From Mustelus asterias (Eukaryota), in the NCBI RefSeq assembly GCF_964213995.1, contig NC_135801.1, forward strand, positions 134,168,001-134,232,000: a DNA stretch of 64,000 nucleotides. The letters are read 5' to 3'. The position numbers and the translations under genes are program-made. Position 1 is the stretch's first letter. Each line of letters opens with the position of its first letter. Below are positions 2,993 to 47,372 of this stretch, one piece after another. The notes under the pieces were generated by a model that was not told the DNA's origin, searched no databases, and worked only from the letters and a program-made list of their open reading frames with translations.

Positions 2993-3004
2993 ATATTGTT
3001 GTTG

Positions 3005-3218: not shown

Positions 3219-3587
3219 CTTGCACTTAATTTTGTTTAATTGTTGTTCATTATCATTGGTTATTCCTGATAACAAGCAGAGGCAGCCTTAAGGAGTAGTT
3301 AGCATGTTCTCTGAAGGAATATGTCATGTCTTGTTAATCTACTTGGATTATTTTGAGGTTATTACTAAACTAATGGATGAGGGACAGTACAGAGAATATA
3401 ATTAACCTGAGCGCTGGTTCAGAAAACATTTGATATATGTCTGAAACAAGAAAAGGAAAGTTAACACGTTCCCTCCTGCTGTCAGGTTCTCTCCCACCGC
3501 CATTTTAACTGGCCTGAAATACAGCACATGAATGCTCCACCTGGTCTCAGAAGATACCTTGGACCTTCTCTGCCCCTCAGCTTGGTT

Positions 3588-3912: not shown

Positions 3913-4324
3913 AACCTGATTCTCCACCACAATCATCTGATTGATTACTTATTCATTTTACCATTTATGTGGGTCACAGCAGTGGCCTTAAAACCTGCAC
4001 CAAAGAATTTTGATTCTTCGCCCACCAACAGATGATGCTAGCTTTGGGTGTGCAGCAGTATTGGGCAAGCAAATACAAATCTTCTAAGTTTCACCACTGG
4101 CCTTCATTCCTACTGAGTTAAAATCAGAGCTAAGATTTGTGCAGAAAGTTATGGATCCGGGATTCACAAGAATACCTTGGATCATATACACATCATACAA
4201 ATCAAGTCCTTGGCATTATGGGTAATTTTGTAAGTCAGTATACTGGCATGGAACCTGAACCAATAACAACTCAGACTCATAAAATTACCCCTTACAACAT
4301 ATTTTCAACTGGGTTAGACTTAGA

Positions 4325-4803
4325 AATCGTTCTTTCTGGTTGTATCACAGCTTGGTATGGCTCCTGCTTTGGCCAAGACTGCAAGAAACTACAAAAGATC
4401 ATGAATGTAGTCCAATCCATCATGTAAAGCAGCCTCCCATCCATTGACTCTGTCTACACTTCCCGCTGCCTCGGCAAAGCAGCCAGCATAATCAAGGATC
4501 CCACGTAGCCCGGACATTCTCTCTTCCACCTTCTTCCGTCGGGAAAATGATACAAAAGTCTGAGGTCACGTACCAACTGACTCAAGAACAACTTCTTCCC
4601 TGCTGCCATCAGACTTTTTAATGGACCTACCTTGCATTAAGTTGATCTTTCTCTATACCCCAGCTATGACTATAACACTACATTCTGCACTTTTTCATTT
4701 CCTTCTCTATGAATGGTATGCTCTGTCTATATTGCGCGCAAGAAGCAATACTTTTCACTGTATGCTAATTAATACATGCGACAATAAATCAAATCAAATC
4801 AAT
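4325..4803 (+). mobile_element. Rex1/Babar-like LINE 3' fragment
   Basis: IVLSGCITAWYGSC..QDCKKLQKI motif and (AATCA)n tail; same family as 13515-15180 and 57770-58877. Confidence 0.75.
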
Positions 4804-4860
4804 GGCTATTTTCACTCTTTCGTCCATTTTATCTGTGTCAGTGATGTAAGCTGACAGGAT

Positions 4861-5155
4861 CATAGAATCACTACTGTGCATAAACAGGCCATTCGGCTCA
4901 TCAAGCTTGCACCGACAACAATCCCACGCAGGCCCTAGCCCTGTAACCACACCCTCCTGACACTAAGGGGCAATTTAGCATTGCCAATCAACTGAACCCG
5001 TAGATTTTTGGACAATGGGGGGGAAATCGGAAACCCACGCAGACACAGGGAGAACGTGGAAACTCCACACAGCCAGTCACCACCCAAGGTTAGAATTGAA
5101 CCCAGGTCCCTGGCACTGCGAGGCAGCAGTGCTGACCACTGCGCCACCGTGCCAC
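4861..5155 (-). mobile_element. HE1-like V-SINE
   Basis: Reverse complement of the head, V-domain and tail seen at 3588. Confidence 0.8.
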
Positions 5156-8100
5156 TCCTATTATGCAAACACTGTTCTATCCGAACAAACATCACAGCAG
5201 TTAATGGTGCTTATCCTGGTGAACTGTATGTTTTAACTAAATGTACTTTACTACCCTAAATGTTGGCTTTTGTCAACCTCTGCAAAGGTATTCTGAGCTG
5301 TGGTAAAAATAGTATGTTCCAATGGAAAGAACGTGTGCACCTCATATCAAATTGAGATTCTTCCTATGGGTATTTTGCACTTTTTTGTTTAGGATTTTTT
5401 AATATTTGGTGATGGTTAGCATGTATGGCAGCTAGTTGATAGTTTGTGGAATGGGGTAAAGGAGGATAAGTGCTCAAATTCCTGCCAGAAAGAAGCATTT
5501 TTATAAGATGGTAAATCATTTGAATATTAATCACTGACCACCTGCAGCATTACTCATAAAATCTGATCACTGGGATTTTGTGCAGCACGTGTGCAATCTG
5601 CAAGTGTGAAAGCTTTGACTAGCAATCCCTAAATGCAGGGGCTTTGGCCAAGTGTCTATTAGTTTGCATTTATTTGAGAAGCTTCTTATAGGACATGAAC
5701 TCGGTGAAAGCAGAAAATTTTAAAGACTGCTCTAACCTCCCATTATCCCTTACCTATGATTTGTCTATTCCCTAAATGAAGCAATATGGATGACCAAGAA
5801 TGCAATCAACATGATGCAGTGACCTCCATTGCCTTTTCACTGTTTATATTTCACTCAAACAGAATAATCAGAATAAACATATATCCTCCCACATCTCATC
5901 GCAGCTCAAAATAGTATCATCACATGCCAGATGAGCCTGTTAAAGCATTTGGAATTGTGGAGAGAAAAATTGTTGGAACAAAGAGTTTAATGTGATAACA
6001 AATCAGTTTATACTTCTAAAGGACAAGGGTTCTACTTTCCAAAAAGACAGCCATAGTGGATGAAGAAATAAGAAACTAAAAGAAAAGACATACAGGTATA
6101 ATGCAAAAAACACAAATTCTGGCAAATGGGAGAGAGCAGCAATGAGTGACAAAACAGACAGCAAAAGCTACAATAAAGTATGAAAATGAACTTGCAAGTG
6201 ACGTCAAAATTAATACAAAACCTTTTACAATTAAATTAGGAAATAGGTGGCCAGAAGATATGTGGGTGCCCTTGAAAACTAATAATGTGGTGTTTCCTAA
6301 AATTCAATAAACAGATATTGAAACTGGGCCTTCAACATATGAGGCTAGCTTCCAGGTTAATGATTTCCAGTATGCTGATATCTCTTCCCAAATTCATGTA
6401 GGGTAGATCCCTCCCTCTAACCTGAACTTCTAACCTGGTCCTGGATCTTGCTTTGGTGCATTGATAATACCTATATATATATAATATTTACATTGATGCT
6501 TTGTTCATGCTTGTATACTGTATATGAATACAAGTTGTACATCCTGCCTGTTTTTGCAAATATCTAGTTTATATTACTATTTCAGAGGTAATGTTTACTT
6601 CTTGGGAGGATTATTATGCTGAAGGTAAGGTAATTAAAATGCTGAGCTCGAATGATTGCCAGAACACCTAAAGAATAAGTTTATTTAATAGAATCAGCGT
6701 AAAAGAGATAGAACTATAAAACAACAGGTGGGCTTACTCAGCTGGATCAATTACAAATGAGGGATAATTAGCTCAGGTGTCAGTTTGAGGATAGCTAAGA
6801 ACAGGCTACTTCATCATGGGCTGGGTCAAGCTTCAGGAAGTTCTCTGTTTCATTTTTTCTGGGAGAAGCTTTCAATTGCAGTTTGGACCTTACATGGTTT
6901 GCAGCTCACTGAGGGACGTTAGCCAATATGAATTACATAATGACATGCACTGAGAGCAAAGTAAAACACTAACTTCATCAGGGATTGTGTGAAAGGTGGG
7001 AGATTTAAACTTAGTTTGAATATTGTAAGGAACAGAGCTAGAAGATTGCCTAGTTTGAAGCAAGTGGGAGAATCTACAGTAAATCGCAGAGTGTCTTATT
7101 GCAACCAGCAGATTCGCTTGGAAGTAATCAAAAACTGACCAGCACAAGGGACAAAGGCTTCCACAATCAAGAGATGGTAAGTAGAATTTTTACCTGAGAA
7201 TAGCTGGAGCACAGGAAAGTTCTCCAGAGGATTGTGGCATACTTAAGGGTGGTCCCTGTACAAGTAAATGACTTTAAGTATCTTACAGGAGCATTCTTGG
7301 GAAAGTAGGAAGTAAATCCAAGTGCAATAACATACATAGTTATAAACCACATTGTTAAATTAATAGAGTTTCTGTTTAAATATTGTATATGCAATAACTT
7401 TTTAAAAAGTGAAATCTGAGAGATAATTATATTGAAGAAGCATACTTATGTCAGTTAAAACTAATGCATTCAAATGTTAAAGGTTCCTAACCGATCATAA
7501 CACCATAAATAAATTATCAAAACGTGCATTCAGTATTCATTCTATTGCAGCATGATCTCTCCCTGATCAATTCCCTTAATCTTTCATCTATTTAGTACTG
7601 TAAAACTACCATTTACTCTCTCTGCATTCATCAGCTTCTGCCATTGACTGTTTCCTTAAATTTAACATTTTCTCCCTACATCAATTCTTCAGAAACAATT
7701 TTCTTATTTATTTGCTACTTGCAACTGCGTACTGAATTCATATATTCCTCTGCCCAGGTTATCCTGTATTTCATACACCAGTCCTTTCCAGTTACTGTTG
7801 GCAGTTGTATTGCCAAGTAGTCTTTGTGTCTTCTTCTTTCTGTTCCTAGCTATCTAATCTTGGCTTTACATTTTGTTGTTTGACAGATAGACTTCTATTT
7901 ATCGAATATTTTAATTAACTCAGGACATCCAAAGAACATTACAACTGATTAAGTACTTTAGAAGTGTATTCGCTGCTGCAATGCAGGGAATACAGCAGCC
8001 AATTTGTGCATACAAGATCCATAAATAGCAATATAATAATGTCCAAATTATGCTTTTTAAAAATGTGATGTTGACTGAGAAATAAAATTTGGCCAGAACA

Positions 8101-13514: not shown

Positions 13515-15180
13515 TTTGATTTTATTTGATTTGATTTATTATCGTCACATGTATTAGTATACAGTGAAAAGTATTGTTTCTTGCGCGCTATACAAAGCAT
13601 ATTGCACATAGAGATAGAATGCAGAATGTAGTGTTACGGTCCATAGCTAAGGTGTAGAGAAAGATCAACTTAATTCGAGGTAGGTCCATTCAAAAGTCTG
13701 ATGGCAGCAGGGAAGAAGCTGTTCTTGAGTTGATTGGTACGTGACCTCAGACTTTTGTATCTTTTTCCCGACAGGAGGAGGTGGAAGAGAGAATGTCCAG
13801 GGTGCGTGGCATCCTTAATTATGCTGGCTGCTTTGCTGAGGCAGCAGGAGTGTAGACAGAGTCAATGGATGGGAGACTGGTTTGCGTGATGGATTGGGCT
13901 ACATTCATGACCTTTTGTAGTTTCTTACGGTCTTGGGCAGAGCAAGAGCCATACCACGCTGTGATACAACCAGAAAGAATGCTTTCTATGGTGCATCTGT
14001 CGAACATAGAACATAGAAAGCCACAGCACAAACAGGCCCTTCGGCCCACAAGTTGCGCCGATCACATCCCCACCTCTAGGCCTATCTATAGCCCTCAATC
14101 CCATTAAATCCCATGTACTCATCCAGAAGTCTCTTAAAAGACCCCAACGAGTTTGCCTCCACCACCACCGACGTCAGCCGATTCCACTCACCCACCACCC
14201 TCTGAGTGAAAAACTTACCCCTGACATCTCCTCTGTACCTACCCCCCAGCACCTTAAACCTGTGTCCTCTCGTAGCAACCATTTCAGCCCTTGGAAATAG
14301 CCTCTGAGAGTCTACCCTATCCAGACCTCTCAACATCTTGTAAACCTCTATCAGGTCACCTCTCATCCTTCGTCTCTCCAGGGAGAAGAGACCAAGCTCC
14401 CTCAACCTATCCTCATAAGGCATGCCCCCCAATCCAGGCAACATCCTTGTAAATCTCCTCTGCACCCTTTCAATGGCTTCAACATCTTTCCTGTAATGAG
14501 GTGACCAGAACTGCGCGCAGTACTCCAAGTGGGGTCTAACCAGGGTCCTATAAAGCTGCAGCATTATCTCCCGACTCCTAAACTCAATCCCTCGATTAAT
14601 GAAGGCCAGTACGCCGTACGCCTTCTTGACCGCATCCTCCACCTGCGAGGCCGATTTAAGAGTCCTATGGACCCGGACCCCAAGGTCCTTCTGATCCTCT
14701 ACACTGCTAAGAATGGTACCCTTCATATTATACTGCTGCTTCATCCCATTGGATCTGCCAAAATGGATCACCACACACTTATCCGGGTTGAAGTCCATCT
14801 GCCACTTCTCCGCCCAGTCTTGCATTCTATCTATGTCTCGCTGCAACTTCTGACATCCCTCCAAACTATCCACAACACCACCTACCTTGGTGTCGTCAGC
14901 AAACTTACCAACCCATCCCTCCACTTCCTCATCCAGGTCATTTATGAAAATGACAAACAGCAAGAAGTTGGTGAGAGTCGTAGCAGACATACCAAATTTC
15001 CTTAGTCTTCTGGGAAAGTAGATGCTTTGGTCCCTCCATGCCGACACTTAACCATAGTGCCGGCATAGAGGGACCAGGACAAGTAGTTGGTGATCTGGAC
15101 ACCTAAAAACTTGAAACTCTCGACCATTTCTACTTCGCCCCCATTGACGTAGACAGGGGCATGTTCTCCACTACGCCCTC
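13515..15180 (-). mobile_element. Rex1/Babar-like LINE fragment interrupted by CR1 (pieces 13515-14000 and ~14963-15180)
   Basis: EVEMVESFKFLGVQIT, RRLRKFGMSATTLTNF | RCTIESILSGCITAWYG; the sequence is contiguous once the CR1 is removed. Confidence 0.85.
14002..14964 (-). mobile_element. Young CR1 LINE 3' fragment
   Basis: Open frame with KFADDTK and LVRPHLEYC; (CTATGTT)n tail; near-identical to 42204-43167. Confidence 0.95.
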
Positions 15181-16740
15181 CAATTCGCTGGGACTGTTCC
15201 AAAATCTGCAAAATTTTGGAAGATGATAACCAACGCACCCACCATTTCCATGGCCATTTCCTTTAATAGCCTGGGATGTAGATTATCTGGCCCGAGGAAT
15301 TTACCAACTTTCAGTCCTATTAATTTCTCCGGTGCCATTTTTTAGTAAAACTGATTCTCTTCAATTTCTCCTTTTCCTTTCCCGGACATGGTTCCTTAGC
15401 ATTTCTGAGAAGCTTTTTGTGTCTGCCTCTGTGAAGACAGAAAGCAGTTGTTTAACTGCTTTGCCATCTTCTTGTTATCTGTTATAAATTATCTTTTTTC
15501 AGACTGTAAGGCATTTGTCTTCACTCATCTTTTGTTTTTGGGAAAGGGCCAAAACTATCTTAAAAACTACAATAAAAATTAGTATCAAAGTTCAAGTAGT
15601 AGTGTAAAACCAGGTAAGTAGTGTAAAGCATAATAAGGCTAAAAAGCTTCTGAATTTTTAATAGTACTGGCTATGAAGTTTCCCTCAGTTAAGCAAAGGA
15701 GTCCCCAGAGTGATCCTGTCCTAAGCATACAGAAAAATGGAGCCAAGATACATTTAAATACACTGCAATATTTAAATGAAGCTTAAATGAAAGCCATGAG
15801 TCATATTTGGCAAGGCAAGTTCGGGCTGGTGTAAAAGGTCTGTTGGAAATCTCATTCAGTGCCAAAGTGGACCAAATCCAGCTATGTGAATCTGAGCAAG
15901 ATTCTTCAGCTCACTAGCACCTGCTCTGTTGCCACAGAGTGCAGCAATTCAAAAACCTTCACTCAAGAATTGGCAGTGGAGAAAATTGCGGAGAAAAAAA
16001 TAAGTGAAATAAAATACAAGGTGCCAGTGTCATCCATCTCCTTCTGGGCCACATTTGTAAGAAAAGCCTGGAGGATTCACATTATTTGTCAAGGTTCATC
16101 CCAGGTAACTCCATACACAATTTTGTGCTCTGCAGTCTTCACTGGAACAAAAATCAACTGTTGCTGGAAGGCTATCAACTGGGTTTGTTCACTTATTGGT
16201 TTTGCAGGACAAGGAGATGTGTGAGAGCAAGGGCTGGACTTCTAGTTCCCAATGGGACCAATCATGGAGGTGGGCAAGTGTGGCGGGGATCTAATTAAAT
16301 CTACTGAAAGGCTTATTAAAGCTATTGTCAGAGTCAGTCTCATAACACACAGACATAGTTGCCTGAAGATGGTCTCACAGTGGCAGACAGGGTCCAGCAT
16401 TCTACACAGGTTGAAGCCCTCCCTGCCAATCTGCTTCAACTGCATCCACATGCCATCCTGTCGGGAGGTTCCCCCTCCAAAATGCTGGCCCGTCTCTTCG
16501 TCTATTCTTTGCTGTTTTAGAGAAAGCATCTGAAAATGGCAGCATCCTTTCTCTTATTTATTTGAAAGGGCAGTGTGCCCTTCTTCAGTGCTGGCATACC
16601 TCCTTTTGGCCCTCCAGTTTCAAAAGCTTGACTGCTGTCCTCTTTTAGATGTAAGCCCACCCTTCTGCCCCTAATTAGTCAATTTTGAGAAAATAACAGC
16701 CAAGTGACTTCCCCAAAGGGACGGACTTCTGATCCCCATT

Positions 16741-19420
16741 TAGAACCATAGAACATTACAGCACAGAAACAGGCCTTTTGGCCCTTCTTGCCTGTGCCGA
16801 ACCATTTTTGTGCCAAGTCCCACTGACCTGCACCTGGACCATATCCCTCCACACCCCTTTCATCCATGTACCTGTCCAAGTTTTTCTTAAATATTAAAAG
16901 TGAGCCCGCATTCACCACCTCATCTGGCAGCTCATTCCAAACTCCCACCACTCTCTGTGTGAAGAAGCCCCCCCGCTAATATTCCCTTTAAACTTTTCCC
17001 CCCTCACCCTTAACCCATGTCCTCTAGTTATTTTCTCCCCTAACCTCAGTGGAAAAAGCCTGCTTGCATTCACTCTATCATAATTTTATACACCTCTATC
17101 AAATCTCCCCTCATTCTTCTATGCTCCAGGAAATAAAGTCCTAACCTATTCAACCTTTCTCTGTAACTCAGTTTCTCAAGTCCCGGCAACATCCTTGTAA
17201 ACCTTCTCTGCACTCTTTCAACCGTATCAATATCCTTCCTGTAATTAGGTGACCAAAACTGCACACAATACTCTAAATTCGGCCTCACCAATGTCTTGTA
17301 CAACCTCACCATAACATTTCAACTCCTATACTCAATACTTTGATTTATAAAGGCCAATGTACCAAAAGCACTCTTTACGACCCTATCTACCTGTAACGCC
17401 ACTTTTAGGGAATTATGTATCTGTATTCCCAGATCCCTCTGTCATACTGCACTCTTCAGTGTCCTACCATTTACCTTGTATGTTCTACCTTGGTTTGTCC
17501 TTCCAAAGTGCAATACCTCACACTTGTCTGCGTTAAATTCCATTTGCCATTTTTCAGCCCATTTTTCTAGCTGGTCCAAATCCCTCTGCAAGCTTTGAAA
17601 ACCTTCCTCACTGTCCACTACACCTCCAATCTCTGTATCATCAGCAAACTTGCTGATCCAATTTACCACATTATCATCCAGATTATTGATATAGATGACA
17701 AACAACAATGGACCCAGCACTGATCCCTGTGGCACACCACTAGTCACAGGCCTCCACTCAGAGAAGCAATCCTCCACTACCACTCTCTGGCTTCTTCCAT
17801 TGAGCCACTGTCTAATCCAATTTACTACCTCTCCACGTATACCTAGCGACTGAACCTTCCTGACTAACCTCCCATGCGGGACCTTGTCAAAGGCCCTACT
17901 GAAGTCCATGTAGACAACATCCACTGCCTTCCCTTCATCCAGTTTCCTGGTAACTTCCTTGAAAAACTCTAATAGATTGGTTAAACATGACCTACCACGC
18001 ACAAAGCCATGTTGACTCTCCCTAATATGTCCCTGTCTATCCAAATATTTGTAGATCCTATCTCTTAATGCTCCTTCCAATGATTTACCTACTACTGACG
18101 TCAAACTTACCGGCCTATAATTTCCCGCATTACTTTTTGAGCCTTTTTTAAACAACGGAACAACATGAGCTATCCTCCCGTGGATACCGACACTTTAAAT
18201 ATATCTGCCAGGGCCCCTGCAATTTCAACACTAGTCTCCTTCAAGGTCCGAGGGAATACCCTGTCCGGTCCTGGGGATTTATCTACTCTGATTTGCCTCA
18301 AGACAGCAAACACCTCCTCCCCATTAATCTGTATAGGTTCCATGACCTCCCTACTTGTTTGCCTTATTTCCATAGACTCCATGCCAGTTTCCTTCGTAAA
18401 TACGGATGCAAAAAACCCATTTAATATCTCCCCCATTTCTTTTGGTTCCATACATAGCCGACCACTCTGATCTTCAAGAGGACCAATTTTATCCCTTACT
18501 ATCCTTTTTCTCTTAATATACCTGTAGAAGCTGTTAGGATTATCCTTCACCTTGTCTGCCAAAGCAACCTCATGTCTTCTTTTAGCCCTCCTGATTTCTT
18601 TCTTAAGTAGTTTCTTGCACTTTTTATACTCTTCAAGCATTTTATTTGCTCCCTGTTGCCTATACATGTCATACATCTCTCTCTTCTTCTTTATCAGAGT
18701 TCCAATATCCCTCAAGAACCAAGGTTCCTTATTCACTTTGCCTTTAATCCTGACAGGAACATACAAACTCTGCACTCTCAAAATTTCTCCTTTGAAGGCC
18801 CACTTACCATTCACATCCTTGCCACCATTCACATCCTTGCCAGAGAACAGCCTGTCCCAATCCACGCTTTTTAGATCCTTTCTCATTTCTTCAAATTTGG
18901 CCTTTTTCCAGTTTAGAACCTCAACCTAAGGACCAGATCTATCTTTATCCATGATCAAGTTGAAACTAATGGCGTTATGATCACTGGAACCAAAGTGTTC
19001 CCCTTCACACACTTCCGTCACTTGTCCTAACTCGTTTCCTAATAGGAGATCTAATATTGCATCCTGTCGAGTTGGTACCTCTATATATTGATTTAGAAAA
19101 TTTTCCTGAACACATTTTACAAACTCTAACCCGTCTAGACCTTTAACAGTATGGGAGTCCCTATCTATATGTGGAAAATTAAAATCCCCCACTATCACAA
19201 CTTTATGTTTCCTGCAGTTGTCTGCTATCTCTCTGCAGATTTGCTCCTCCAATTCTCGCTGACTATTGGGTGGTCTATAATACAACCCCATTAACGTGGT
19301 CATACCTTTCCTGTTTCTCAGCTCCACTCATATGGCCTCGGTAGACAAGCCCTCTAATCTGTCCTGCCTGAGCACTGCTGTAACATTTTCCCTGACTAGC
19401 AATGCCAACCCCCCCACCCT
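16741..19420 (-). mobile_element. CR1 LINE ORF2 (endonuclease + RT), disrupted, with internal deletion near 18165
   Basis: ORFs 18926-19327 (YRPPN, GDFN, SDH), 18170-18886, 17442-18155 (QHGF, PQGSVLGP, FADD) and 17070-17312. Confidence 0.95.
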
Positions 19421-23180: not shown

Positions 23181-25807
23181 AATTACAAATACTATGAAAT
23201 ATTATGTGGAGTCATATATTTTTATTAATTCATGGGATGTGAACATTTCCATCGAGGCTGTTGCCCATCCTTAATTGTATTTCAGAAGTTGATGGTGAAA
23301 GACATGAAGGCTTTAGAAAGAATGAAGAAAGGATTCCAGGAATGAGGAACTCCTGTTATGTAGATAAACATGAGAAGCTGGGGCTGTCCTCCTTGGAGAA
23401 GAGAAGGTAGAAGAGGGCAGTTAAGAGTCAGCCACATTTCTATGGATCTGGAGTCACACGTAGGACAAACTGGGTGAAAATGGCAGATTTCCTTCCCTGA
23501 TGGACAGAACTTAACCAGATGGGTTTTTATAATGGTCATCATTACTGACATTAGCTTTTTAATTCGAGATCAATTAATTAATTGAACTTAAATTCTACTA
23601 GCTTTTAGTAGATTTTACTTGCATCTCCTGAGCATTCGTCCCATCCTCTGGATTACTAGTAACGTTACCTTCACTATTCCTGCATGTGGATGGTTGCTAT
23701 ACTACTGCCTGAAAGAGTGAGGTAGAGACAGGAACCCTCACATTTAAGAAGCATTTTGATAAGCACTTGAAACAACTTGGCATACAAGGCTACAGACAGG
23801 TGCTGGAAAATGGGATTAGAATAGATTGGTGCTTGATGGCTGGCACAGACATGATGGGTTGAAAGGCCTCTTTTGTGCTGTGAAACTCTATGAATCTATT
23901 ACCTAACGTCTCTACATTGTTTCAAAGAAGTTAATTAAAAGTCAAACAATGCAACACTAATTGGCCCAAATTTTCTGTTCCCCAAAGGGCCGTACGCCAG
24001 AGGTTCTCTTGGAAGTCCCCCGTCAAGCACTGCACAGGAATTGCCCCGGAAGTTCCCACTTCCATTGGGTAATTACTCTGCACATGAATGCCTCTGATAC
24101 TCCAATTTAAAGTTGGAGATTTTGGGTAGTTCCGACTCTGTTAGCAGAATAGGTACTCAAGAAACGTTACACACACTAAAACCAGTTCTAACTCCTGGGT
24201 AACTATACTACTAACCCACTGACCCCTACTGGTCTCCCTCTCTACTCCCCCAATCCCAGAATGACCTCTAACTACCCCTTGAACCCCCACTCCTCAAATA
24301 GAAATAGCACCCCCCAACCCCATCCCCGACCGTGCTCCCACCAATTAACAACCCAACACCCCCCTGACCACCCAACTAATTTCTGCAATGCTGACTAATC
24401 ACATGCCACTTGACTAGCCCCCCCCTCCGAGCCATCTCACTAACCACCCCAACCCCCTCAACTACTCCCATGATCCCCCGATCCCCTGATTAATGTGTTT
24501 TCTTGGTGAAGGATGAAGCAAGATAGCATTGTGAATAACCAGCCTGAGAGTGTGAGATTCTGAGAAGCACAAATGTCCTTTGTTGGCCAGGTGCTTTCCA
24601 GAAGTGAATTTATTTATAAAGGGAAATATCACATACGCTAGGACAGTATCGGAATGTCATCATATTAGTTACCATCAGTTGCTTGGCAAAACCTAATTTG
24701 CTCTTGGAGCAATGTTTTAACTTGTTTTGCACAATATAAGTGAAACGTGCCAATGAGCTCAACTGTTCAGAAATTTCCATCAAAACTAAGTTCCGATCTG
24801 ATTACCTGTTGAAGGGCTGGGTTAGCTTAAATACACAACTCCTGTAACATTATATTACAAATATTGGTGGCGAAATGAAATAGCTTTGACCTGAGAAACC
24901 AGCTATGGATAGTGCATCACATAGGGCTAGATTTCATTGCTGATGATCTTTTCCAGCAATTAAGGTTAGATGTATGCATATTGCTGTAACTTGTTCCTAT
25001 ACACAATAGAGGGTATCTTTTAGGAACATAGTGAACCATCATTATAATTCAGTGATCAGCATTTATTAAAACAGAATTAACACTTACAAATGCAATAAAA
25101 TTCTTCATAAAGCCTTCAGTATGTAGGGTGATATAATATTAATTGCCATATTAGCTAGAAATTATCAAGGATCCTGGTGCAATTACTGAATGTTCACAAA
25201 GTATCCATTCAATAAGAATGTGTTATCAACAGAGTTGTCAAACAGTGGAATGTGCCTCAAAGGCATTTGATTACAAGTTAAGACAGGTTATTCAAATTCT
25301 ATATAATTCATTGGCAATGCCACATTTGGAATACTGCATGCAATTTTGGACAGCCGGCATTCAAAACCATCTTTGTGCATTAGAAAGGGCCCAAAGAAGA
25401 GCAATAAGGGCAATTCAAGGGTTTGACCTCTAAGCATTGGAGAGATACTTATAGAATTAAACTTGTTTTCATTGAGAAAAAAACACTGAGATGGGACTGG
25501 TCTTTAAAACATTGAGAAGCCTAAGTAATGGAGATCTATTAACCCACACTGCATTACTCAAATTGGACTGCACAGTGTAAAATCAACACACCTCAAGCAA
25601 ACAAACTAACTGTTGAAAAGACTTTGCCAAACAAGTTGTTGCTAATTCAAATAATTGCCTGAAAAAAAACCAAGATAAATACCTGGTAAAGAGCAGAATT
25701 TTGGTAATATGGATTGAAACAGTAGAATGCTATGTTATACATAAAGTGTTGTCAGTAAAAACCAACTAGACAAGGTTAATAAGTTTGGTTGTGACTTTAG
25801 TTTAACA

Positions 25808-26440
25808 TTCTCAGCCTTTTTTTAATACTTTTCCAATTCAATCAAATCAAGTCCAATTCAGAGTCTCAACAAGTTGAGACATTTCTGATCCAGGCTGACA
25901 AGACAGGGCATGCAATCCTCTACCCTGTCTTGGGCCTGATCTACATGAGCCAAGCCGATTGGAGTAGGCAGACATCTCCGCCCCCCCCAGGCTTGATCTC
26001 ATTTGCATCTTAGCCAAAAGGCCAAGATACCGCTATTAAAAATTGCTTCATATGAAACATATGAAGCTTAAATGCAACCCAATGGCCACTACCAAGTGCA
26101 GCATCTGCAGACTACACTTGATCTTAGCCAAAAGGCCGAGAAGGTCAAGTGGAGTTTTTGATCCTGCACCTGGTCTAAGCCAATGAGGTTACACCGAGGC
26201 TTCACCTGAAGCAATTTTTTTAAAGCGATCTTGGCCTTTTGGCTAAGATGAAGCTCAGATCAAGCCTGGGATGGGGTGTAATGCCTCAGCCTGTCAGCTT
26301 GGATCTTGTTCGATCGAGCCCAGGAAAGGAACAATGGCCTTCCTTGTCAGCTTGGATCTGTTTTGTCTCTCTTGTGGGGTGTCTGATTGGGCCAAATTGG
26401 ATTTTTGATTGGGAATAAAGTACCAAAAGGTACAAAAAAA
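25808..26440 (+). mobile_element. U2/U4 snRNA-chimeric retroposed element (outer copy; split by inner copy: 25808-25820 + 26141-26440)
   Basis: TTCTCAGCCTTTT...AAGGTCAAGTGGAGT (U2 5' end), AGCCAATGAGGTTACACCGAGGC (U4 5' stem-loop), GCAATTTTTTT, TCTTGGCCTTTTGGCTAAGAT, AATTGGATTTTTGA, AATAAA and an A7 tail. TSD AG(T/C)TTAACATTCT at 25799-25811 and 26440-26452. Confidence 0.8.
25817..26143 (-). mobile_element. U2/U4 snRNA-chimeric retroposed element (inner copy)
   Basis: 26111-26143 reverse complement CTTCTCGGCCTTTTGGCTAAGATCAAGTGTAGT equals vertebrate U2 nt 5-37 as recalled. Same module order as the outer copy; ends in A7. Confidence 0.8.
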
Positions 26441-28279
26441 GCTTAACATTCTTAAATTCTGCTGAATTACCTTCTAGATTTGAAAGAAATTTCCCCTTGG
26501 AGATTAAATAAATTGCTTCAATATTCATTCATTTCCAATACCACTGCACATGTGGAGCCAAGGTGAAGTGCAGTCTTCTGATGAAGCAGGACTAAAAGAT
26601 GGGGGGAATAACTAATTTGGGGCACATAGATATGCAGTCTTCGTTTTAAAGTTAGAAATTCCTTATTTTTTGAGTTCCATTTTAAAATTCAGTCAAATGA
26701 AATGTATCACTGCCTCGGATATTGTAAATATTTTAGGAACAGGAATGTAATTTCAAAAAACAGCTTAATAAAAATATATAATTATGAGGACTGAACAGCA
26801 ACTAGTTTGTGTAATGTCAGTCACAATTACTTCAAGTGTCCTTTGGCAACCAGTTCTCTTGATTTCTTAATGTTTTCTACCATCATAATTTCTTCCTAAA
26901 ATATTGAAATGGCCACCTTTTGACAATCACCACATCTCACTAAGGGTTGTATATCAAAATTAAATCTCAAATACCATTTCACTTACCAGGTGAAGTACAA
27001 ACACAGTTCAAATAAATGAAGGCATTATGCTGTTATGTTATTCACTGCAACAAAATCATAGTCATTGATTATCAGAGCCATATTCTCAATAATCTGTTAA
27101 CACGCTTTTTCCTTTGATCCAAGTTTGCTGTTTATGATTGCCCTCTGTTCAGAACTTCCCTTAGATATTCCCACCTATTCTGTTCCAACATTGGGCAGTT
27201 CTTTCCCAGCGAGAACGTATGCCATTGCCTTTCAAAGTCACAGGTAATTTTGCCTGGCTTATTACAAATAAGCAACTATGGTGTATCATGAAAATTAAGC
27301 TTCACACAGCTTTGCATTAATAAATCCTGCGCGAGTCAAACATTCAGGCTATTTTAAACCAAATTACATTTACAAAGACAAGTGGAAAGCAAAAGAGAGA
27401 CTGGTTTAAAATTAATTTCTGCAATAGTAACCTGCGATATTTTCTGTAGATTAACAAAATGGATATGCAAAATAGACATTGCACCATCACTTTACAAGTC
27501 TTAGAAAGGCATGTAATTCAACAAAATTCCGAGATAGTAACCAATATGAAAAAGATAATTACAGAAGATTATTCAAAGTTGATTCAGAGAGAACAAGGGG
27601 CACAGGTTTAAACTAGCAAAAGTCTAATGCAAGAAAACACTTTCTCACAGAATGGTCAACACATGAAATTGACTTCTGATAGTATAGTTAAAACAGTAGC
27701 ATGAGAGTGGTTGTACATAGATGCGGCAATGCATGAACTAAAATAAGTAAATGGCTTTCTTTATCCAAAATTATCTTGAGATCTTATGGATTAATATAAA
27801 CTGTATGGCCAATTACATTGTTTAATCAACCTATTATGTGAAATTTTATCTATTTAATTCATTTTCCTCTATGGAAGTACCCATAATATTTGAAAGATTT
27901 AATATGTAACTTTTTGTTAAAATATTTATTGCATAAGGAGTTTGGTTTCACCATGAAGCCAAATACACTGTACATCAACTTCTCCTTGCAAATCTCACAC
28001 AAGCTTCGCTAACGATTCAGTCCACCTATTTAATAAGCAGCTGACAAACACAGAGCAGTGTGATCACTGGGCTACATTGAGTTTAAATGTAGCAATGGTA
28101 AGGCAAATAGCCTAAGATGCCTAGAGTTAAGTCATTTTTCTGATAACTATCGAGGAGTTAATAGCATTGAATCATAACTTCGGACAGACTAGATCCTGAT
28201 GTTGTATTCTATCCCCTCTCTAATTGAATATTCTGTCAACACTCACTGTCAAGGTTCATGAACATCTATTTGGGCATTT

Positions 28280-38905: not shown

Positions 38906-41900
38906 ACAATTGCCCACATTTGGCCCATGTCCCTCTATACCCATCTTACCCATGTAATTGATTAAACACTTTTTAAAAGATGAAATTGCACCCATCTCTA
39001 CTACTACCTCTGGCAGCTCGTTCGACACTCACCACCCTCTGTGAAAAAATTGCCCCTCTAGATCCTTTTGTATCACCTTAAACCTATGCCCTCCAGTTTT
39101 AGATTCCCCTACCTTTGGGAAAAGACGTTGACTATCTACCATATCTATGCCCCTCATTATTTTATAGACCTCTATAAGATCACCCCTAAGTCTCCTAAGC
39201 TCCAGGAAAAATGTCCCAGTCTATCTAACCACTCCTTATAACTCAAACCAACCGGTAGCATCCTAGTAAATCCTTTCTGCACTCTTTCTAGTTTAATTAT
39301 ATCCTTTCTATAAAAGGGCGACCAGAACTGTACACAGTATTCCAAGTGTGGCCATACCAATGTCTTATACAACTTCAATAAGACGTCCCAATTCCTGCAT
39401 TCAATGTTCTGACCAATGAAACCAAGCATGCCGAATGCCTTCTCCACCACTCTGCCCACCTGTGGCTCCATTTTCAAGGAGCTATGAACCTGCACTCCTA
39501 GGTCTTTTTGTTCTATTACTTTCCCCAACGCCCTACCATTAACTGAGTGGGTCCTTCCCCGATTCAAAAATGCATCACCTCAAATTTATCTAAATTAAAC
39601 TCTATTTGCCATTCATTGGCCCACTGGCCCAATTGATCCTGTTGCAATCCTGGATAACCACTATGCCACCAATCTTGGTGTCATCTGCAAACTTACTAAC
39701 CAGGGCTCCTAAATTTTCATCCAAATCATTAATATAAATGACAAATAACAGTGGACTCAGCATCGATTCCTGAGGCACACTGCTGGTCACAGACCACCAG
39801 TTTGAAAAACAACCCTCCAGAAGCACCCTCTGTCTTCTGTCATCAAGCCAATTTAGTATCCAATTGGCTACCTCATCCTGGATCCCGTGAGATTTAACTT
39901 TATGCAACAACCTACCATGCAACTTACCTTGTCAAAGGCCTTGCTAAAGTCCATGGAGACAATGTCGACTGCACTGTCCTCTTCTACCTTCTTGCTTACC
40001 CCTTCAAAAAACTCAATCAAATTCGTGCGACATGATTTTCCACTCACAAAGCCATGCTGACTGTCTTTTTTAAACAGGTGTGACCTGTTTAAAAAAGACG
40101 GGTGGCACTTGAATCCCAGGGGGACCAATATCCTGGCGGGAAGGTTGGCTAAGGCTACTGGAGAGACTTTAAACTAGAAAGGTTGGGGGGAGGGAATCAA
40201 AATGAGGGGACTGAGAGCGAGGAGGTTAGCTCGCAAATAGATAAGGAATGTAGACAGGGTAAGAGGGAGGTTAGACGAGTGATGGAGAAGGGAAGTGCTC
40301 AGGCTGAAGGTCTGAGATGTGTCTATTTTAATGCCAGGAGTGTAGTGAATAAAGTGGATGAGCTTAGAGCGTGGATTGCTGCTTCGAATTGTGATGTGGT
40401 GGCCATTACGGAGACTTGGATGTCTCAGGGACAGGACTGGGTGCTTCAGGTGCCGGGTTTTAGATGTTTCAGGAAGGACAGGGAGGGAGGCAAGAGAGGG
40501 GGGGGAGTGGCACTGTTGATCAGGGATAGTGTCACGGCTGTAGAGAAGGTGGACGCCGTGGAGGGATTGACTACGGAGTCTCTGTGGGTGGAGGTTAGGA
40601 ACAGGAAGGGGTCGGTAACGTTGCTGGGTGTTTTCTATAGGCCGCCCAATAGTAACAGAGATGTTGAGGAGCAGATGGGGAAACAGATCCTGGAGAGATG
40701 TAGGAATAACAGAGTTGTCGTGATGGGAGATTTTAATTTCCCAAACATAGATTGGAATATCCCTAGGGCTAGGGGTTTGGATGGAGAGGAGTTTGTTAGG
40801 TGTGTCCAGGAGAGTTTCCTGACACAGTATGTGGATAAGCCTACTAGAGGAGAGGCTGTACTTGATCTGGTGCTGGCTAATGAACCTGGACAGGTGGAGG
40901 ATCTCTCGGTGGGTGAGCATCTTGGGGATAGCGATCATAATTCTATCTCCTTCACGATAGCATTGGAAAGAGATAGGATCAGGCAGGCTAGGAAAGTGTT
41001 TCTCTGGAGTAAAGGGAAATACAGTGTCATCAGGGAGGAAATTAGACGGGTAAATTGGAAGGAGGCATTCTTGGGGAAAAGTACCGAAGGAAAGTGGAGG
41101 ATTTTCAAGGAATGTTTGTCTGGAGCTCTGCATGACAACGTTCCGATGAGACAAGGGGGTGTTGGTAGGGTACGGGAACCGTGGTGCACGAAGGTTGTGA
41201 TGAACCTGGTGAATAAGAAAAGAGAGGCGTACAGAAGGTTCAGAGAGCTAGGAGGTGTTAAGGATTTAGAGGAGTATACGGGATGTAGGAAGGAGCTTAA
41301 GAAGGAAATTAGGAGAGCGAGAAGGGGTCATGAGAAGACCTTGGCGGGTAAGATTAAGGAGAATCCCAAGGCTTTCTACAAATATGTCAAGAGTAAAAGG
41401 ATGAGATGTGAAGGCACAGGACCCTTAAAAGGTGAAGGGGGAAAAGTTTGTGCGGAACCGTTAGAAATGGCGGAGGTGCTTAATGAATACTTTACCTCGG
41501 TATTCACGGTGGAAAGGGATCTGGGTGGTTGTACTGCTGGTTTGCGGTGGACAGAAAGGATCGAGCATGTGGACATAAAGAAAGAGGAGTGTTGGAACTA
41601 TTGAATGGCATCAAGGTTGGTAAGTCGCCGGGACCGGATGGGATGTACCCCAGGTTACTGTGGGAGGCGAGGGAGGAGATTGCGGAGCCTTTGGCGATGA
41701 TCTTTGCATCGTCGATGGAGACGGGAGAGGTTCCGGAGGATTGCAGATGTGGTCCCTATATTCAAGAAAGGGAACAGGGACAGCCCGGGAAATTACCGAC
41801 CGGTGAGTCTAACCTCAGTGGTTGGTAAGTTGATGGAGAGGATCCTGAGAGACAGGATTTATGATCATCTAGAGAAGTTTAGTATGATCAAAAGTAGTCA

Positions 41901-43950
41901 GCACGGTTTTGTCAAGGGCAGGTCGTGCCTTACGAGCCTGGTTGAGTTCTTTGAAAATGTGACCAAACACATTGACGAAGGAAGAGCGGTGGATGTGGTC
42001 TATATGGACTTCAGCAAGGCGTTCGATAAGGTCCCCCATGCAAGACTTCTTGAGAAAGTGAGAGGGCATGGGATCCAAGGGGCTGTTGCCTTGTGGATCC
42101 AGAACTGGCTTGCCTGCAGAAGGCAGAAAGTGGCTGTGGAGGGGTCTTTCTCTGCATGGAGGTCAGTGACCAGTGGAGTGCCCCAGGGATCTGTTCTGGG
42201 ACCCTTGCTGTCTGTCATTTTCATAAATGACCTGGATGAGGAAGTGGAGGGATGGGTTGGTAAGTTTGCTGACGACACCAAGGTAGGTGGTGTTGTGGAT
42301 AGTTTGGAGGGATGTCAGAAGTTGCAGCGAGACATAGATAGAATGCAAGACTGGGCGGAGAAGTGGCAGATGGACTTCAACCCGGATAAGTGTGTGGTGA
42401 TCCATTTTGGCAGATCCAATGGGATGAAGCAGCAGTATAATATGAAGGGTACCATTCTTAGCAGTGTAGAGGATCAGAAGGACCTTGGGGTCCGGGTCCA
42501 TAGGACTCTTAAATCGGCCTCGCAGGTGGAGGATGCGGTCAAGAAGGCGTACGGCGTACTAGCCTTCATTAATCGAGGGATTGAGTTTAGGAGTCGGGAG
42601 ATAATGCTGCAGCTTTATAGGACCCTGGTTAGACCCCACTTGGAGTACTGCGCGCAGTTCTGGTCACCTCATTACAGGAAAGATGTTGAAGCCATTGAAA
42701 GGGTGCAGAGGAGATTTACAAGGATGTTGCCTGGATTGGGGGGCATGCCTTATGAGGATAGGTTGAGGGAGCTTGGTCTCTTCTCCCTGGAGAGACGAAG
42801 GATGAGAGGTGACCTGATAGAGGTTTACAAGATGTTGAGAGGTCTGGATAGGGTAGACTCTCAGAGGCTATTTCCAAGGGCTGAAATGGTTGCTACGAGA
42901 GGACACAGGTTTAAGGTGCTGGGGGTAGGTACAGAGGAGATGTCAGGGGTAAGTTTTTCACTCAGAGGGTGGTGGGTGAGTGGAATCGGCTGACGTCGGT
43001 GGTGGTGGAGGCAAACTCGTTGGGGTCTTTTAAGAGACTTCTGGATGAGTACATGGGATTTAATGGGATTGAGGGCTATAGATAGGCCTAGAGGTAGGGA
43101 TATGATCAGCGCAACTTGTGGGCCGAAGGGCCTGTTTGTGCTGTGGCTTTCTATGTTCTATGTTCTAATCAGTCCTTGCCTCTCTAAATACCTGCAGATC
43201 TCGTCTCTCAGAAAACCTTCTCACAACCTACCCACTTCAGATGTTAGGCTCACCAATCTCTAGTTCCCAGGCTTTTCCCTGCAACCCTTCTTAAACAAAG
43301 GCACAACATTTGCTACCCTCCAATCTTCAGACACCTCGCCTGTGGCTATCGATGATTCCAATATCTCTGCCTGGGGACCTGCAATTTCCTCCCTAGCCTA
43401 CCACAACGTCCTGGCATACACTTCATCAGGTCCCGGGGATTTATCTACCTTGATGCGCTTTAAGACTTCCAGCACCTCCTTCTCTGTTACATGTACTCTC
43501 CTCAAGACATCACTGTTTATTTCCCCAAGTTCCTTAACATTCATGCCTTTCTCAACAGTAAATACTGGTGAGAAATATTCATTTAGGATTTCACCATCTC
43601 TTGTGGATCCGCACATAGATGATTTTGTTGATCCTGAAGAGGCCCTACTCTCTCCCTTGTTACTCTTTTGCCCTTTATGTATTTGTAGAAGCTCTTTGGA
43701 TTCTCTTTTGTCTAGTCCCCTTTTTGCCCTCCTGATTTCTCTATTAACTCTACTCAAACAACCTCTGTAGTCTTCAAGGGATCCACTTGATCCCAGCTGC
43801 CTATGCATGTCATATGCCTCCTTCTTCTTTTTGACCAAGGCCTCAATATCCTGAGTCATCCAGGGCTCCCTACTTCTACTAGCCTTGCCCTTCAGTTTAA
43901 AAGGAATGTGCTTACCCTGAACCCTGGTTAATGCACTTTTGAAAGCCTTT
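38906..43950 (-). mobile_element. Older CR1 LINE split by a younger CR1 (pieces 38906-40065 and 43166-43950)
   Basis: ORFs 39172-39567, 39602-39922 and 43398-43950; ...ctgactgtc | ctaatcagtcc... rejoins the (L)I(R)DSQHGF region. Confidence 0.9.
40063..43167 (+). mobile_element. Young CR1 LINE: ORF1 esterase C-terminus + complete ORF2 with about three frameshifts + 3' UTR
   Basis: DLFKKDGWHLNPRGTNILAGRL*, ORF 40183-41604 (NARS, ITETW, GDFN, SDH), ORF 41704-42993 (RT), (CTATGTT)n tail. Confidence 0.97.
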
Positions 43951-44502
43951 AGAATATGTGGATAACAAACTCCCACAAATGTCAATGTGATAATAACCAG
44001 ATTTTTGGATTCTGTGATGTTGATTGAGGGATAAACATTCGCCATGTCATTGGTACTAATTCCCCTTCTCTTCTTCAAAATATGAACATAGGAATGCCAC
44101 CCAGCCCCTCAAGCCTGCTCCATCATTCAATTAGATCATGGCTGATCTTCTACCTCAACACCATTTTCCTGCATCATCCCCATATCCCTTGATATCTTTA
44201 ATACCTAGAAATCCATTGGTTTCTGTCTTGAACATGCTCAATGACTGAGCCTCCACAAACCTCTGGTGTAGACGAATTAGGAACGGACAGCAAATGCTAG
44301 CTTTGTCAGCAACAATAACATCCCATCAAAGAATAACAAAGAGGCGGCAGAGAGACTTCACTAAGGAGCATTCTGGGAGAAGTCAGCACAATCACATCTA
44401 CTAAAAAGTGAGAAGGGGAAGAACTGGTGTCAAGGAGCGGATAAGCCCGAAACTCTACATTAGTGTTTCCCTCCCTCTCTCCTCCACTGACCAGAAAAAT
44501 GG

Positions 44503-44595
44503 GTAAGAAGTCTCACAATACCACGTTAAAGTCCAACAGGTTTATTTGGTAGCAAAAGCCATTAGCTTTCGAAGCACTGCTCCATCAGGTGAGTG
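44503..44595 (-). mobile_element. Penelope-like pseudo-LTR fragment within the CR1 5' UTR
   Basis: gttaaagtccaacaggtttatttggtagcaaaagcc family sequence. Confidence 0.7.
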
Positions 44596-47372
44596 AAAAA
44601 AAAGGGCACAGACATTACAGGTCATTAAGTGATGTGAGACCAATGAACACAGCTGAGTAGTGAGTAAGTCCTGGTGGGTATTTCCAAACCATATTAAATT
44701 GAAACTCATTGTTTAGGCAAGGGTAGGGAACTATTTGCTTTTTTTCTTTTTTTATAAAAAATTATAAAGTTTTTAAACTTAAACGGTTTACTCATGTCAG
44801 GAGAGCTTGAAGCTGTGGTTTGCCCTTCTTGCTCCATGTGGGAGGCCGGGCACATTTCCAGTGCCCGGGGCCAGCATGTGTGCAGGAAGTGTGTCCAGCT
44901 GCGCTCCTGGAAGCTCGAGTTTTGGCGCTGGAACAGTGGCTGGATACACTGTGGAGCATTCACGAGTCTGAGAGCATTGTGGATAGCACATTTAGGGAGG
45001 AGGTCACACTGCAGCTGAAGGGACTTGAGGAAGGAAGGGAATGGGTGACCACCAGGCAGCCCAAGAGATGTAGGCAGGTAGTTCAGGAGTCCCCTTGGGT
45101 CTTATCCAGAAATTGGTATTCCATTTTGGAGGCTGATGAGGGAGTTCCTCCAGGGAGTGCAGACAGACCCAAGCTTCTGACACCACAAGCAGCCTGTCCG
45201 TACAGGGGAGAGGGAGGGGGGGAGAGAAGAGAGGCAGGGCAGTAGTAATAGGGGATTCAATAGTGAGGGATACAGATAGGCGCTACTGTGGTCATCAACA
45301 TGACTCCAGGATGGCATGTTGCCTCCCTAGTGCTAGGGTCCGGGATGTCACTGAACGGCTGCAGGACATTCTGAAGGGGTAGAGTGATAAGGCAGAGGTC
45401 ATGGTACATGTTGGTACCAATGACATAGATAGAAAGAGGGATGCGGTCTTGCATCAAGAATTCAGGGAATTAGGCAGTAGACTAAAAAGCAAGACCTCTT
45501 GGTTTGTAATCTCAGGATTACTCCCAATGCCATGTGCTAGTGAGCACAGAAATAGGAGGATAGTGCAGATGAATGCGTGGATTAAGAGATGGTGCAGGAG
45601 GGAGGGTTTTAGATTCCTGTATCACTCAACCATTTCTGGGGAAGGTGGGACCTGTACAAATGGGATGGTCTACATCTGAACCAGAATGGGACTAACATCC
45701 TTGCGGGACGTTGTGCTAGTGCTGTTGGGAGGTGTTTAAACTAATTTGGCTGGGGAAGGGACACAGACTGTTAGCAGAAAAAGGGCATGGAATCATACAG
45801 CAAAACAAACAAGTCAGAGGGAGTGCAGCTGTATTAAATTTCAAGGAAGTAAGGCCAGGCTGGATGGCCTCTTTTTTAACGCCAAGAGTATTGCAAGTAA
45901 AATGGATGAGTTAAGGGCAATGATTAACATGTGGGAGTGTGATATAGTAGCCATCACAGAGATATGGTTGAAGGCAGGACAGAATTGGCAACTCAGCATT
46001 CCAGGATATAGAATCTTCAGATGAGACAGGGGAGAAGGTAAAAGAGGAGGAGGCATTGCATTATTAGTTAAGGAGTCAGTTACTGCAGTAAGGAGTGATG
46101 ATATATTGGAGGTGGCATCAAATTTTGTGGGTAGGGCTTAAGAATAAAAAAGGGCAGGCAGCCACATTATTAAGTTATTATTATAGACCCCAAGATAGTC
46201 AGAGGGATATTGAGGAGCAAATCTCCAGGTCCGAATGAATTGTGCCCTAGGCTGCTGTGGGAGGCAAGGGAGGAAATTGTAAGGACTCTGACCCAAATTT
46301 TCAATTCTTCTCTGGCCACGGGGGGAGGTGCCAGATGACTGGAAAACAGCTATTTGGTTATATGGTTCTGCTATTTAAGAAGGGTTGTAGAGAAAAACCA
46401 GAGAACTACAGACCAGTGAGTCTCACGTCAGTAGTAGGGAAACTATTAGAGAAATTTCTGAAGGACAGCATCTATCTCCACTTGGAGAGGCAAAGCTTGA
46501 TCAGGGATAGTCAAGTTGGCTTCGTTAGAGGGAGGTCATGCCTAACAAATTTGATTGAATTTTTTGAGCAGATGACCAGGTTTGTAGACGAGGGTAGTGC
46601 AGTCTAAGTAGTTTATATGGATTTCAGCAAAACCTTTGACAAGGTCCCACATGGGAGACTTGTAAAGAAAATAAATTCACATGGGATACAGAGTAATTTG
46701 ATAAAGTGGATTCAAAATTGGCTCAGTTGTAGGAGACAGAGGATGTTGACAGAAGGATGCTTCAGTGACTGGAAGCCAGTGTCCAGCGGCACACCACAGG
46801 GATCTGTGTTAGGCCCCCTATTATTCGCAATTTATATAAATGACAATGATGACTATGTGAGGGGTAGGATTAGTAAGTTTGCAGAAGACACAAAGATTGG
46901 ATGGGTGGTCAACAGTGAGGCGGAGCGTCTTGGGCTACCAGAAGATATAGACAGAATGGTCAAATGGACAGATAACTGGCAGATGGAATTTAACCTTGAA
47001 AGGTGTGAAGTGATGGACTTTGGAAGGAGTGATTTGACAAGAAAGTATTCAATGAATGGTAGGGCACTCGGAAGTTCTGTGGAACAAAGGGACCTTGGCA
47101 TGTTTGCCCATAGATCTCTGAAAACGGAAGGGCATGTTAGTTGGGTGGTGAAAAAGGCATATGGGACACTTACCTTTATCAATCGAGGCATAAATTACAA
47201 AAGCAGGAAGTCATGTTGGAGTTGTATAGAACTTTGGTAAGGCCACAGCTAGAGTACTGTGTGCAGTTCTGGTCACCACATTATCGGAAGGCTGTGATTG
47301 CACTGGAGGGGATGCAGAGGAAATTTACCAGGATGCTGACTGGCATGGAACATTTAAGTTATGAAGAGAGGT

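Follow-up and report, generated by a model that had tools for sequence, protein, structure and literature searches.

The 64,000-nt stretch of Mustelus asterias DNA analysed here (the window), C1:134,168,001-134,232,000 of the genome, contains, at 25799..26452, two nested copies of a short interspersed element (SINE) built from pieces of spliceosomal small nuclear RNAs (snRNAs). The outer copy lies on the forward strand; it starts at 25808, is broken by the inner copy, picks up again at 26144 and reaches the end of its A-tail at 26440. It is bounded by a target-site duplication (TSD) whose two halves agree at 12 of 13 positions (25799..25811 and 26440..26452), the last 4 nt of the left half being shared with the head of the element. 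The remaining stump of that head (25808..25820, 12/13 to U2 nt 6-18) was cut by the insertion of the inner copy, which runs antisense within it on the reverse strand (25817..26143, with an A7 tail at 25823-25817). The inner copy landed in a T-run of the outer U2 head, where 4-7 nt were lost and no TSD was made. Twin priming, considered as an origin for the inverted pair, was ruled out because the two copies belong to different subfamilies (~72% alike) and because the inner copy divides the outer head in two.

The modules of both copies were compared with this genome's own snRNA genes. The inner head (26111..26143, reverse strand) is identical to U2 nt 5-37 at all 33 positions, and the arm directly after it is its predicted pairing partner; sequence comparison places a second U2 stem-loop I at 26007..26027 on the same strand. 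The body of the outer copy (26144..26440, forward strand throughout) matches the consensus of an older subfamily, O7. It holds a U4-derived block at 26178..26200, corresponding to U4 nt 25-47 in the kink-turn of the 5' stem-loop (20/23), then a short hairpin with an Sm-like AAT(n) run resembling U4 nt 116-124 (26199..26221, the hairpin overlapping the 3' strand of the kink-turn) and a second U2 stem-loop I (26228..26249, U2 nt 7-27, for which the family consensus is identical at 21/21). These are followed by two fold-back modules which represent duplicated and diverged U2 nt ~25-63 (26258..26359), by a diverged version of U2 nt ~45-105 that includes the stem IIa/IIb region and a U2-type Sm site (26345..26408; 0/2000 shuffles reached the score of the O7 consensus), and by AATAAA and the A-tail (26414..26440). 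An earlier note on this DNA, made from the letters alone, had described two ~330-nt copies with a common module order, the 33/33 head, the 12/13 TSD, and each of the elements from the second stem-loop I to the A-tail. All of these were located, and the U2-type Sm site and AATAAA are indeed limited to the outer copy; the inner copy has neither and also lacks the kink-turn. The 20/23 count for the U4 block was likewise correct, but the three changes do not all lie in the loop as had been stated, one being in the 3-nt bulge and two in the loop.

At the level of the family, the head agrees with U2 at every position compared, over nt 4-37 (34/34) and over nt 1-37 (37/37). The 3' part of the element aligns with U2 nt ~39-105, with a score reached by none of 2000 shuffles in four of seven clusters and by 22-121 of 2000 in the other three. 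Rfam gave no match in the whole window at gathering scores. In the region of the pair it called U2 only, as a partial match below threshold (43.6 bits, gathering score 46); U4 was not called. Several copies elsewhere score at or above the U2 gathering score, and the family can inflate snRNA gene counts. U2 was the only relevant match, and the Rfam scans found no classical SINE head of the 7SL, tRNA or 5S kind with an internal RNA polymerase III (Pol III) promoter. The element also holds internal oligo-T runs (T4 in each stem-loop I, and T5-T6 in 9/9 subfamily consensuses), which disfavour transcription by Pol III.

Both window copies are members of one dispersed family. Over the 3.68 Gb of genome searched, a 21-nt family motif had 12,182 matches with up to three mismatches, against 21 for the control, and the junction motif of the young group had 6,091 against 0, so that the further copies which the earlier note proposed to look for exist in thousands with the same ~330-nt architecture. 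The outer copy as query returned 3,025 first-look candidates, of which 40 were scored (the other 39 at 82-90%); the inner copy returned 2,439, of which 40 were again scored (the others at 93-97%). Among the fetched loci, 129 distinct near-full-length copies fell into nine subfamilies of 3-29 copies each, with mean identities to consensus of 92.8-96.8%. This sample is of best-match loci and is not random, smaller clusters were excluded, and the subfamily labels (B36, O7, O-type, B-type) were coined in this analysis. The inner copy belongs to B36, the youngest and most abundant subfamily (29 sampled copies, mean 96.4%), and O7, to which the outer copy belongs, is represented by five (mean 93.1%). 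Sampled words are shared by 23 sequencing runs, at 10-65% of the words, with no RNA run among those listed.

The family has the form expected of a SINE, being short (<500 bp), fixed in structure across many copies and ending in a 3' A-tail. A duplication of at least 8 nt was called at 48 of 98 scored copies by a crude script, for which misses and false calls both occur, and a start at U2 nt 1 was the largest class (22/98). Same-strand neighbours within 100 nt were found at 17 of 90 best-match loci, against fewer than 0.001 expected per locus, and such tandem copies mostly sandwich a TSD, as do those of crocodilian SINEU-3 (PMC4494074). We conclude that this is a large SINEU-type family with a U4 module, real and apparently undescribed. 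Two further observations concern its copies. A T-run of variable length (1 to >8 T) precedes the A-tail in most of 52 young SINE tails, as do 1-3 T in most of 34 tails of the long interspersed element (LINE) described below; this could reflect uridylation prior to adenylation, or slippage. Within a U4 gene cluster on contig C1418 (L088 5462-5813, L193), a SINE and the 5' end of a U2-headed LINE stand back to back, 65 nt apart, and that SINE copy has a duplicate elsewhere on the contig.

The U4 block calls for separate scrutiny. In the outer copy its match is of modest significance, the score being reached by 10 of 5000 dinucleotide shuffles, and no U4 call exceeded the gathering score in the Rfam scans of the window or of five other loci. 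Antisense U2 can be aligned with U4 nt 20-52 itself, and the block pairs with the head in the U2-headed subfamilies, as would be expected if the block were an antisense fold-back copy of the U2 head whose likeness to U4 arose by chance. Against this, a U4-like pattern had 491 matches in the genome and none in the control, at loci with a form nearer to U4. Twenty of these, hand-picked from 100 listed of the 491, were taken as older relatives: they lack the antisense arm, match U4 nt 23-47 without gaps at 22-24 of 25 positions, and carry a U1 piece upstream of the block in 14 cases (0/300 shuffles each) and a second U2 stem-loop within 70 nt in 18. At one of them (L240) the U4 score was reached by 0/5000 shuffles, and cmscan placed U4 model positions 22-50 on three of the 20, weakly (E 0.46-0.94). 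The identity figures are partly circular because the search pattern picks U4-like sequence, which does not apply to the count or to the family context. The fold-back origin is thus largely rejected, and we consider it very improbable; the sequences of the older relatives indicate that the U4 block is real. The U4 similarity claimed in the earlier note is therefore modest within the window and is carried by the older relatives.

A tree of 28 copies, calculated on the shared body, has the form of a ladder from U1-type forms through the group of the outer copy to that of the inner copy. The tree is unrooted, and its root was inferred to lie at the U1-type forms because their U2 match extends further and their end branches are longer. 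With the root so placed, the ancestral layout would thus have been U1 - U4 kink-turn - Sm-like run - U2, and a U2 head would have taken the place of the U1 head afterwards. The description 'U2-U4-U2 mosaic' in the earlier note accordingly holds for the mixture of U2 and U4, whereas the older, mostly U1-headed forms make it U1-U4-U2. At two of the 20 older relatives (L247, L251) U2 is kept to nt ~141-144 and there is a single fold-back module. Older SINE subfamilies keep U2-like sequence to about nt 46-47, and because of this the end of the head at U2 nt 37, which had been entertained as a mark of the LINE site, was dropped as proof of it. At a separate locus (L246, C4:126582545-126583265), a U1-derived head piece is tandemly repeated at least five times, with a ~40-nt unit, before one old copy.

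A candidate partner resides in the U2 genes. These form an array of 1,833-bp units on contig C24 and another of 8,035-bp units, where a 5.6-kb Tx1 LINE interrupts alternate U2 copies. This LINE encodes a zinc-knuckle protein in its first open reading frame (ORF1), an APE endonuclease and a reverse transcriptase. Exo_endo_phos, zf-RVT, zf-CCHC and a ZCCHC3-type RNA-binding domain scored above the Pfam cut-offs, and RVT_1 was partial at 27 bits (cut-off 29.6). Among the endonuclease matches, identity was highest (70%, across 35% of the query) for a protein with a Heterodontus annotation, a partial match that lends weak support to the shark lineage proposed in the earlier note. The LINE has its own head, U2 nt 5-35, and its 3' junction lies at U2 nt 38/39; in the passages of PMC4640811 drawn on here, the common 3' flank of Keno and Utopia begins at U2 nt 39. 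We call the LINE 'Keno-like' by its insertion site and domains, apart from phylogeny. In the 8,035-bp tandem unit (L084, C24:44838001-44848000, LINE at 1474-7121) it has been amplified as 15 near-identical copies. In the L084 copy ORF2 is fragmented and a ~350-nt insertion of a very common repeat is present; copies at L150, L155 and L223-L226 are without that insertion.

The LINE is also dispersed (1019 candidates, of which 40 scored at 96-100%), with TSDs in non-U2 DNA, and it is not restricted to U2 genes, since the 13 non-array copies inspected all end in DNA other than U2. It is of similar age to the SINE and stands in tandem with SINE copies at three loci (L066, L075, L062). The two share only the U2 head, similarity between the SINE body and the 5' untranslated region (UTR) of the LINE being reached by 188-454 of 500 shuffles. 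The Tx1-type mobilisation proposed in the earlier note is supported by the A-tails, the TSDs and a co-resident Tx1 LINE that uses the same U2 junction.

SINE copies occur at this junction as well. An A6 run joined to U2 nt 38-53 was found 35 times genome-wide, against one control match. On inspection of all 35, 24 followed the 3' end of the LINE (15 of them from the one amplified array unit), 10 followed the SINE (8 clear, and 2 short 3' fragments read by eye) and one followed other DNA. At least four SINE subfamilies are represented at the junction, and the SINE copies resident in U2 genes include those at C24:43.06 Mb, C21:28.06 Mb, C1:80.33 Mb and C14:62.23 Mb. Where the main array ends (L150), 300 nt of DNA from upstream of U2, at 99% identity to the remaining units, pass seamlessly into a SINE head; this SINE is followed in turn by U2 nt 38-54, a truncated LINE, a repeat of U2 nt 38-54, another SINE and then what remains of U2. 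Joins of the main U2 promoter end to the head gave 57 matches, of which 56 lie on the array contig; a single promoter-fused SINE and a single dispersed copy emerged from them. A second U2 type, with a 448-bp unit on contig C21 (175 bits, ~89% identical to the main type), has upstream DNA that lies ahead of intact SINEs at L168/L224, L162/L232 and L165.

DNA of U2 genes has, moreover, most likely moved together with the element. At L228, a truncated SINE and U2 nt 38-98 lie within one TSD; the dispersed copies L227, L189 and L232 carry U2-gene DNA inside their own TSDs; and L160, at 97.4% identity to the array copy, has the final 7 nt of the DNA upstream of U2 between its TSD and +1. L230, for which a TSD was not found, is not counted as a proven transduction. 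From the U2-gene DNA inside these TSDs it is most likely that RNA read through SINE-bearing U2 genes was reverse-transcribed and re-inserted, L228 being the clearest case.

Some other features of the U2 loci may be recorded here. Second-type U2 units at L223-L226 (C21:28.05-28.09 Mb) are heavily invaded by the LINE. U2 units at L157, L158, L159 and L149 in the main array are ~16 nt over the normal length, which is about that of the LINE target duplication, and are possibly scars of insertion loss. At L188 (C1991:53429) an unrelated A-tailed sequence stops precisely at nt 38 of a second-type U2 and is possibly another LINE passenger.

Our interpretation, to which we assign a probability of about 0.68, is that the family is a SINEU-type non-autonomous retroposon which is mobilised by the Tx1 LINE and regains a promoter by insertion into U2 genes. 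The LINE proteins would copy the SINE RNA in trans, and most insertions would fall elsewhere and, lacking a promoter, lead nowhere. On rare occasions, insertion into a U2 gene would put the element back behind the U2 promoter and, because the head is identical to U2 nt 1-37, would restore it, RNA polymerase II (Pol II) transcripts from U2 +1 then being the full element again. The U2 arrays would act as a nursery of master copies. More speculatively, the RNA may enclose its U2 head, and with it the branch-point pairing sequence, in a long hairpin and would then probably avoid acting as U2.

The same SINE and Tx1 partner could, alternatively, depend on masters transcribed from flanking host promoters or by read-through, with heads re-added by template switching to U1 or U2 and the U2 insertions incidental. 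Template switching to U1/U2 snRNA is what Kojima proposed for crocodilian SINEU, where recurrent 5' additions and 5' extensions are reported (PMC4494074). Stacked heads are also seen here (U2+U1+U2 in L199, U2+U1 in L251, and a U2 piece ahead of a full head in L062), U1-headed subfamilies occur, and U2-resident copies are rare. However, switching to mature U2 is insufficient because it cannot supply flanking DNA of U2 genes, and such DNA is present inside TSDs both after the tail and before +1 (L228, L227, L232, L160). The subfamily-specific sequence after the head also keeps its pairing with the head, as if head and body were one transcription unit. We regard this account as unlikely, though it is the foremost of the competing ones.

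Several observations weigh against promoter regain in U2 genes. The earlier note had proposed comparing the SINE 3' tail with Tx1 3' UTRs; the SINE body and the LINE 3' UTR show similarity reached by 4-66 of 500 shuffles, which gives no convincing common tail, and a shared tail is not established. The U2 junction is found in only ~10 of >12,000 copies, and insertions into U2 could be by-products of shared machinery. The sole SINE fused to a main-array U2 promoter (L150) is internally deleted and is therefore no template for full-length copies; for the second U2 type, the upstream DNA is no more than a putative promoter. The youngest and most abundant subfamily, B36, has no member among the 10 U2-resident copies; array turnover, or a collapse of the arrays in the assembly, may account for missing young residents. 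L189 and L227 can alternatively be read as U2 retrocopies later hit by a SINE. Lastly, for the U1-headed older subfamilies (14/20 sampled loci) no start at +1 from a U2 promoter is expected, and the SINE was not found in the six U1 gene loci examined.

Dispersed copies could themselves be masters if the element had an internal Pol II promoter. CCAAT-like words, which resemble the NF-Y motif, are present on both strands of both window copies. They are accounted for, however, by the U4 block and the internal repeats, and they vary among subfamilies. No promoter was found in any crocodilian SINEU (PMC4494074). Among the explanations weighed here this is the least probable.

Predicted RNA structure bears on whether the copies might instead be retropseudogenes of a host-functional, structured snRNA-like gene family, that is, of a variant small nuclear ribonucleoprotein (snRNP), with its own promoter. 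Folding is strong (z -8.7 for the inner copy, 0/100 shuffles; z -2.2 to -8.9 for the subfamily consensuses), although internal duplications contribute part of the stability, that of the inner copy included. The stretch that follows the head is subfamily-specific and keeps its pairing with the head: in each of the nine U2-headed consensuses it is predicted to fold back there and bury the branch-point pairing region. Two-sided change is found in only 4 of 68 predicted pairs (covariation term -1.28), and weak covariation is to be expected because one side of the pairing is invariant. Of 14 distinct substitutions in the 20-nt head arm, 9 (9/10 transitions) keep the pairing as G-U, which is suggestive, the structure having been drawn from the same sequences. 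In the group of the outer copy, at window 26395-26408 and the family 3' end, the stem IIa loop and its downstream partner seem by eye to be altered complementarily relative to U2, as if U2 stem IIc pairing had been kept.

A kink-turn consists of a C-stem, a 3-nt bulge and tandem G.A pairs. This pattern is present in five of the nine subfamily consensuses and absent from the four youngest, including that of the inner copy. In most old copies it folds with a new closing stem; in all nine U2-headed subfamilies its strands are predicted to pair elsewhere. The 15.5K/Snu13 recruitment suggested in the earlier note finds no support in these folds and, with the kink-turn lost in 4/9 subfamilies, binding of 15.5K cannot be required. 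On the predicted structures the kink-turn would be vestigial in the young subfamilies. An Sm site has the consensus RAU(n)G, single-stranded and between hairpins. The U4-type AAT5-6 run is kept in 9/9 consensuses, always followed by A and not G, and is predicted to lie between hairpins in the inner-copy fold; a U2-type Sm site is found in 3/9 and AATAAA in 4/9.

The strong folding, the universal Sm-like run and the re-closed kink-turns of old copies would fit genes for a variant snRNP. The successive replacement of subfamilies, the rapid loss of kink-turn and U2 Sm site, the scarcity of two-sided change and the failure to find a tail-less source gene among the fetched loci all speak against such genes, which we consider highly improbable. 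A bolder form of the retroposon interpretation would make the element an snRNP mimic. It would obtain a U2-gene promoter through the U2-targeting LINE, receive snRNA-like capping and processing and an Sm ring on its U4-derived site, and bind 15.5K on the older kink-turns. It would take the snRNP route of export and re-import, meeting the LINE proteins on the way and regaining the nucleus, with the U2 branch-pairing sequence hidden so that splicing is not poisoned. We regard this as doubtful. If true, it would be a retroposon with its entire life cycle on the spliceosomal RNA pathway.

Elsewhere in the window, 40153-49823 and 14082-18925 contain long open frames of as much as 821 aa between stops, which probably belong to other retroelements.

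SINEs with snRNA heads lack an internal promoter. How SINEUs are transcribed was left as an open question by Kojima (2015, PMC4494074), and a 2018 follow-up passage still treats snRNA-headed SINEs as newly proposed. The genomic evidence given here suggests promoter capture through a U2-targeting Tx1 partner and so offers a candidate answer, namely that the parent gene of the head is also the target and that the promoter is regained with each on-target insertion. Within the literature searched, SINEU-type elements are extended beyond crocodilians and U4 is added as a SINE building block; a subfamily ladder is also preserved, along which heads were swapped from U1 to U2 and the RNA structure was rewired. 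That literature (Repbase and Dfam lay outside the search) had snRNA-derived SINEs from crocodilians only and none from cartilaginous fish, and it held no U4-containing SINE, the supplements of PMC4494074 also being outside the search. In a shark SINE paper (PMC5499810), the words snRNA, SINEU and Tx1 were not found.

Ordinary snRNA retrocopies and U6/L1-type chimeras (as described in PMC4494074) also combine snRNA pieces with A-tails and TSDs. They are one-off events, whereas here a fixed architecture recurs in thousands of copies and in successive subfamilies. The U2-targeting LINEs Keno (Tx1) and Utopia, so far as the excerpts of PMC4640811 describe them, share with the partner LINE the APE endonuclease and the 3' junction at U2 nt 38/39; the partner differs in being widely dispersed too, and those excerpts mention neither a non-autonomous partner nor a promoter. 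A parallel for transcription is provided by the R2 SIDEs and R2/R1 SIDEs, which, according to the part of PMC3414825 used here, are non-autonomous, insert where their partner does within a multicopy RNA gene and rely on its transcription. By analogy, the route proposed for the present element likely resembles theirs. R2 SIDEs are, however, LINE deletion derivatives with a ribozyme that frees the 5' end, whereas the present element is no such derivative; it is built from snRNA, and its 5' end is the start of the host gene.

The nearest counterparts are crocodilian SINEU-1, -2 and -3 (PMC4494074). These have U1/U2 heads, recurrent head addition, internal U2 pieces, A-tails, internal T-runs, a Tx1 partner bearing a U2 head and tandem copies sandwiching a TSD, all as in the present family. 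In the main text of that paper they are confined to crocodilians, have no U4 module described and target Mariner-N4. The present family differs in its U4 block, in having the U2 gene itself as the target shared with the LINE and in copies that lie behind U2 upstream DNA. It is also larger, its copies numbering 12,000 or more where the three SINEU families have about 7,700, 1,600 and 1,058. As far as sequence features can tell, it is functionally an element of the crocodilian SINEU kind, with every defining feature that was tested.

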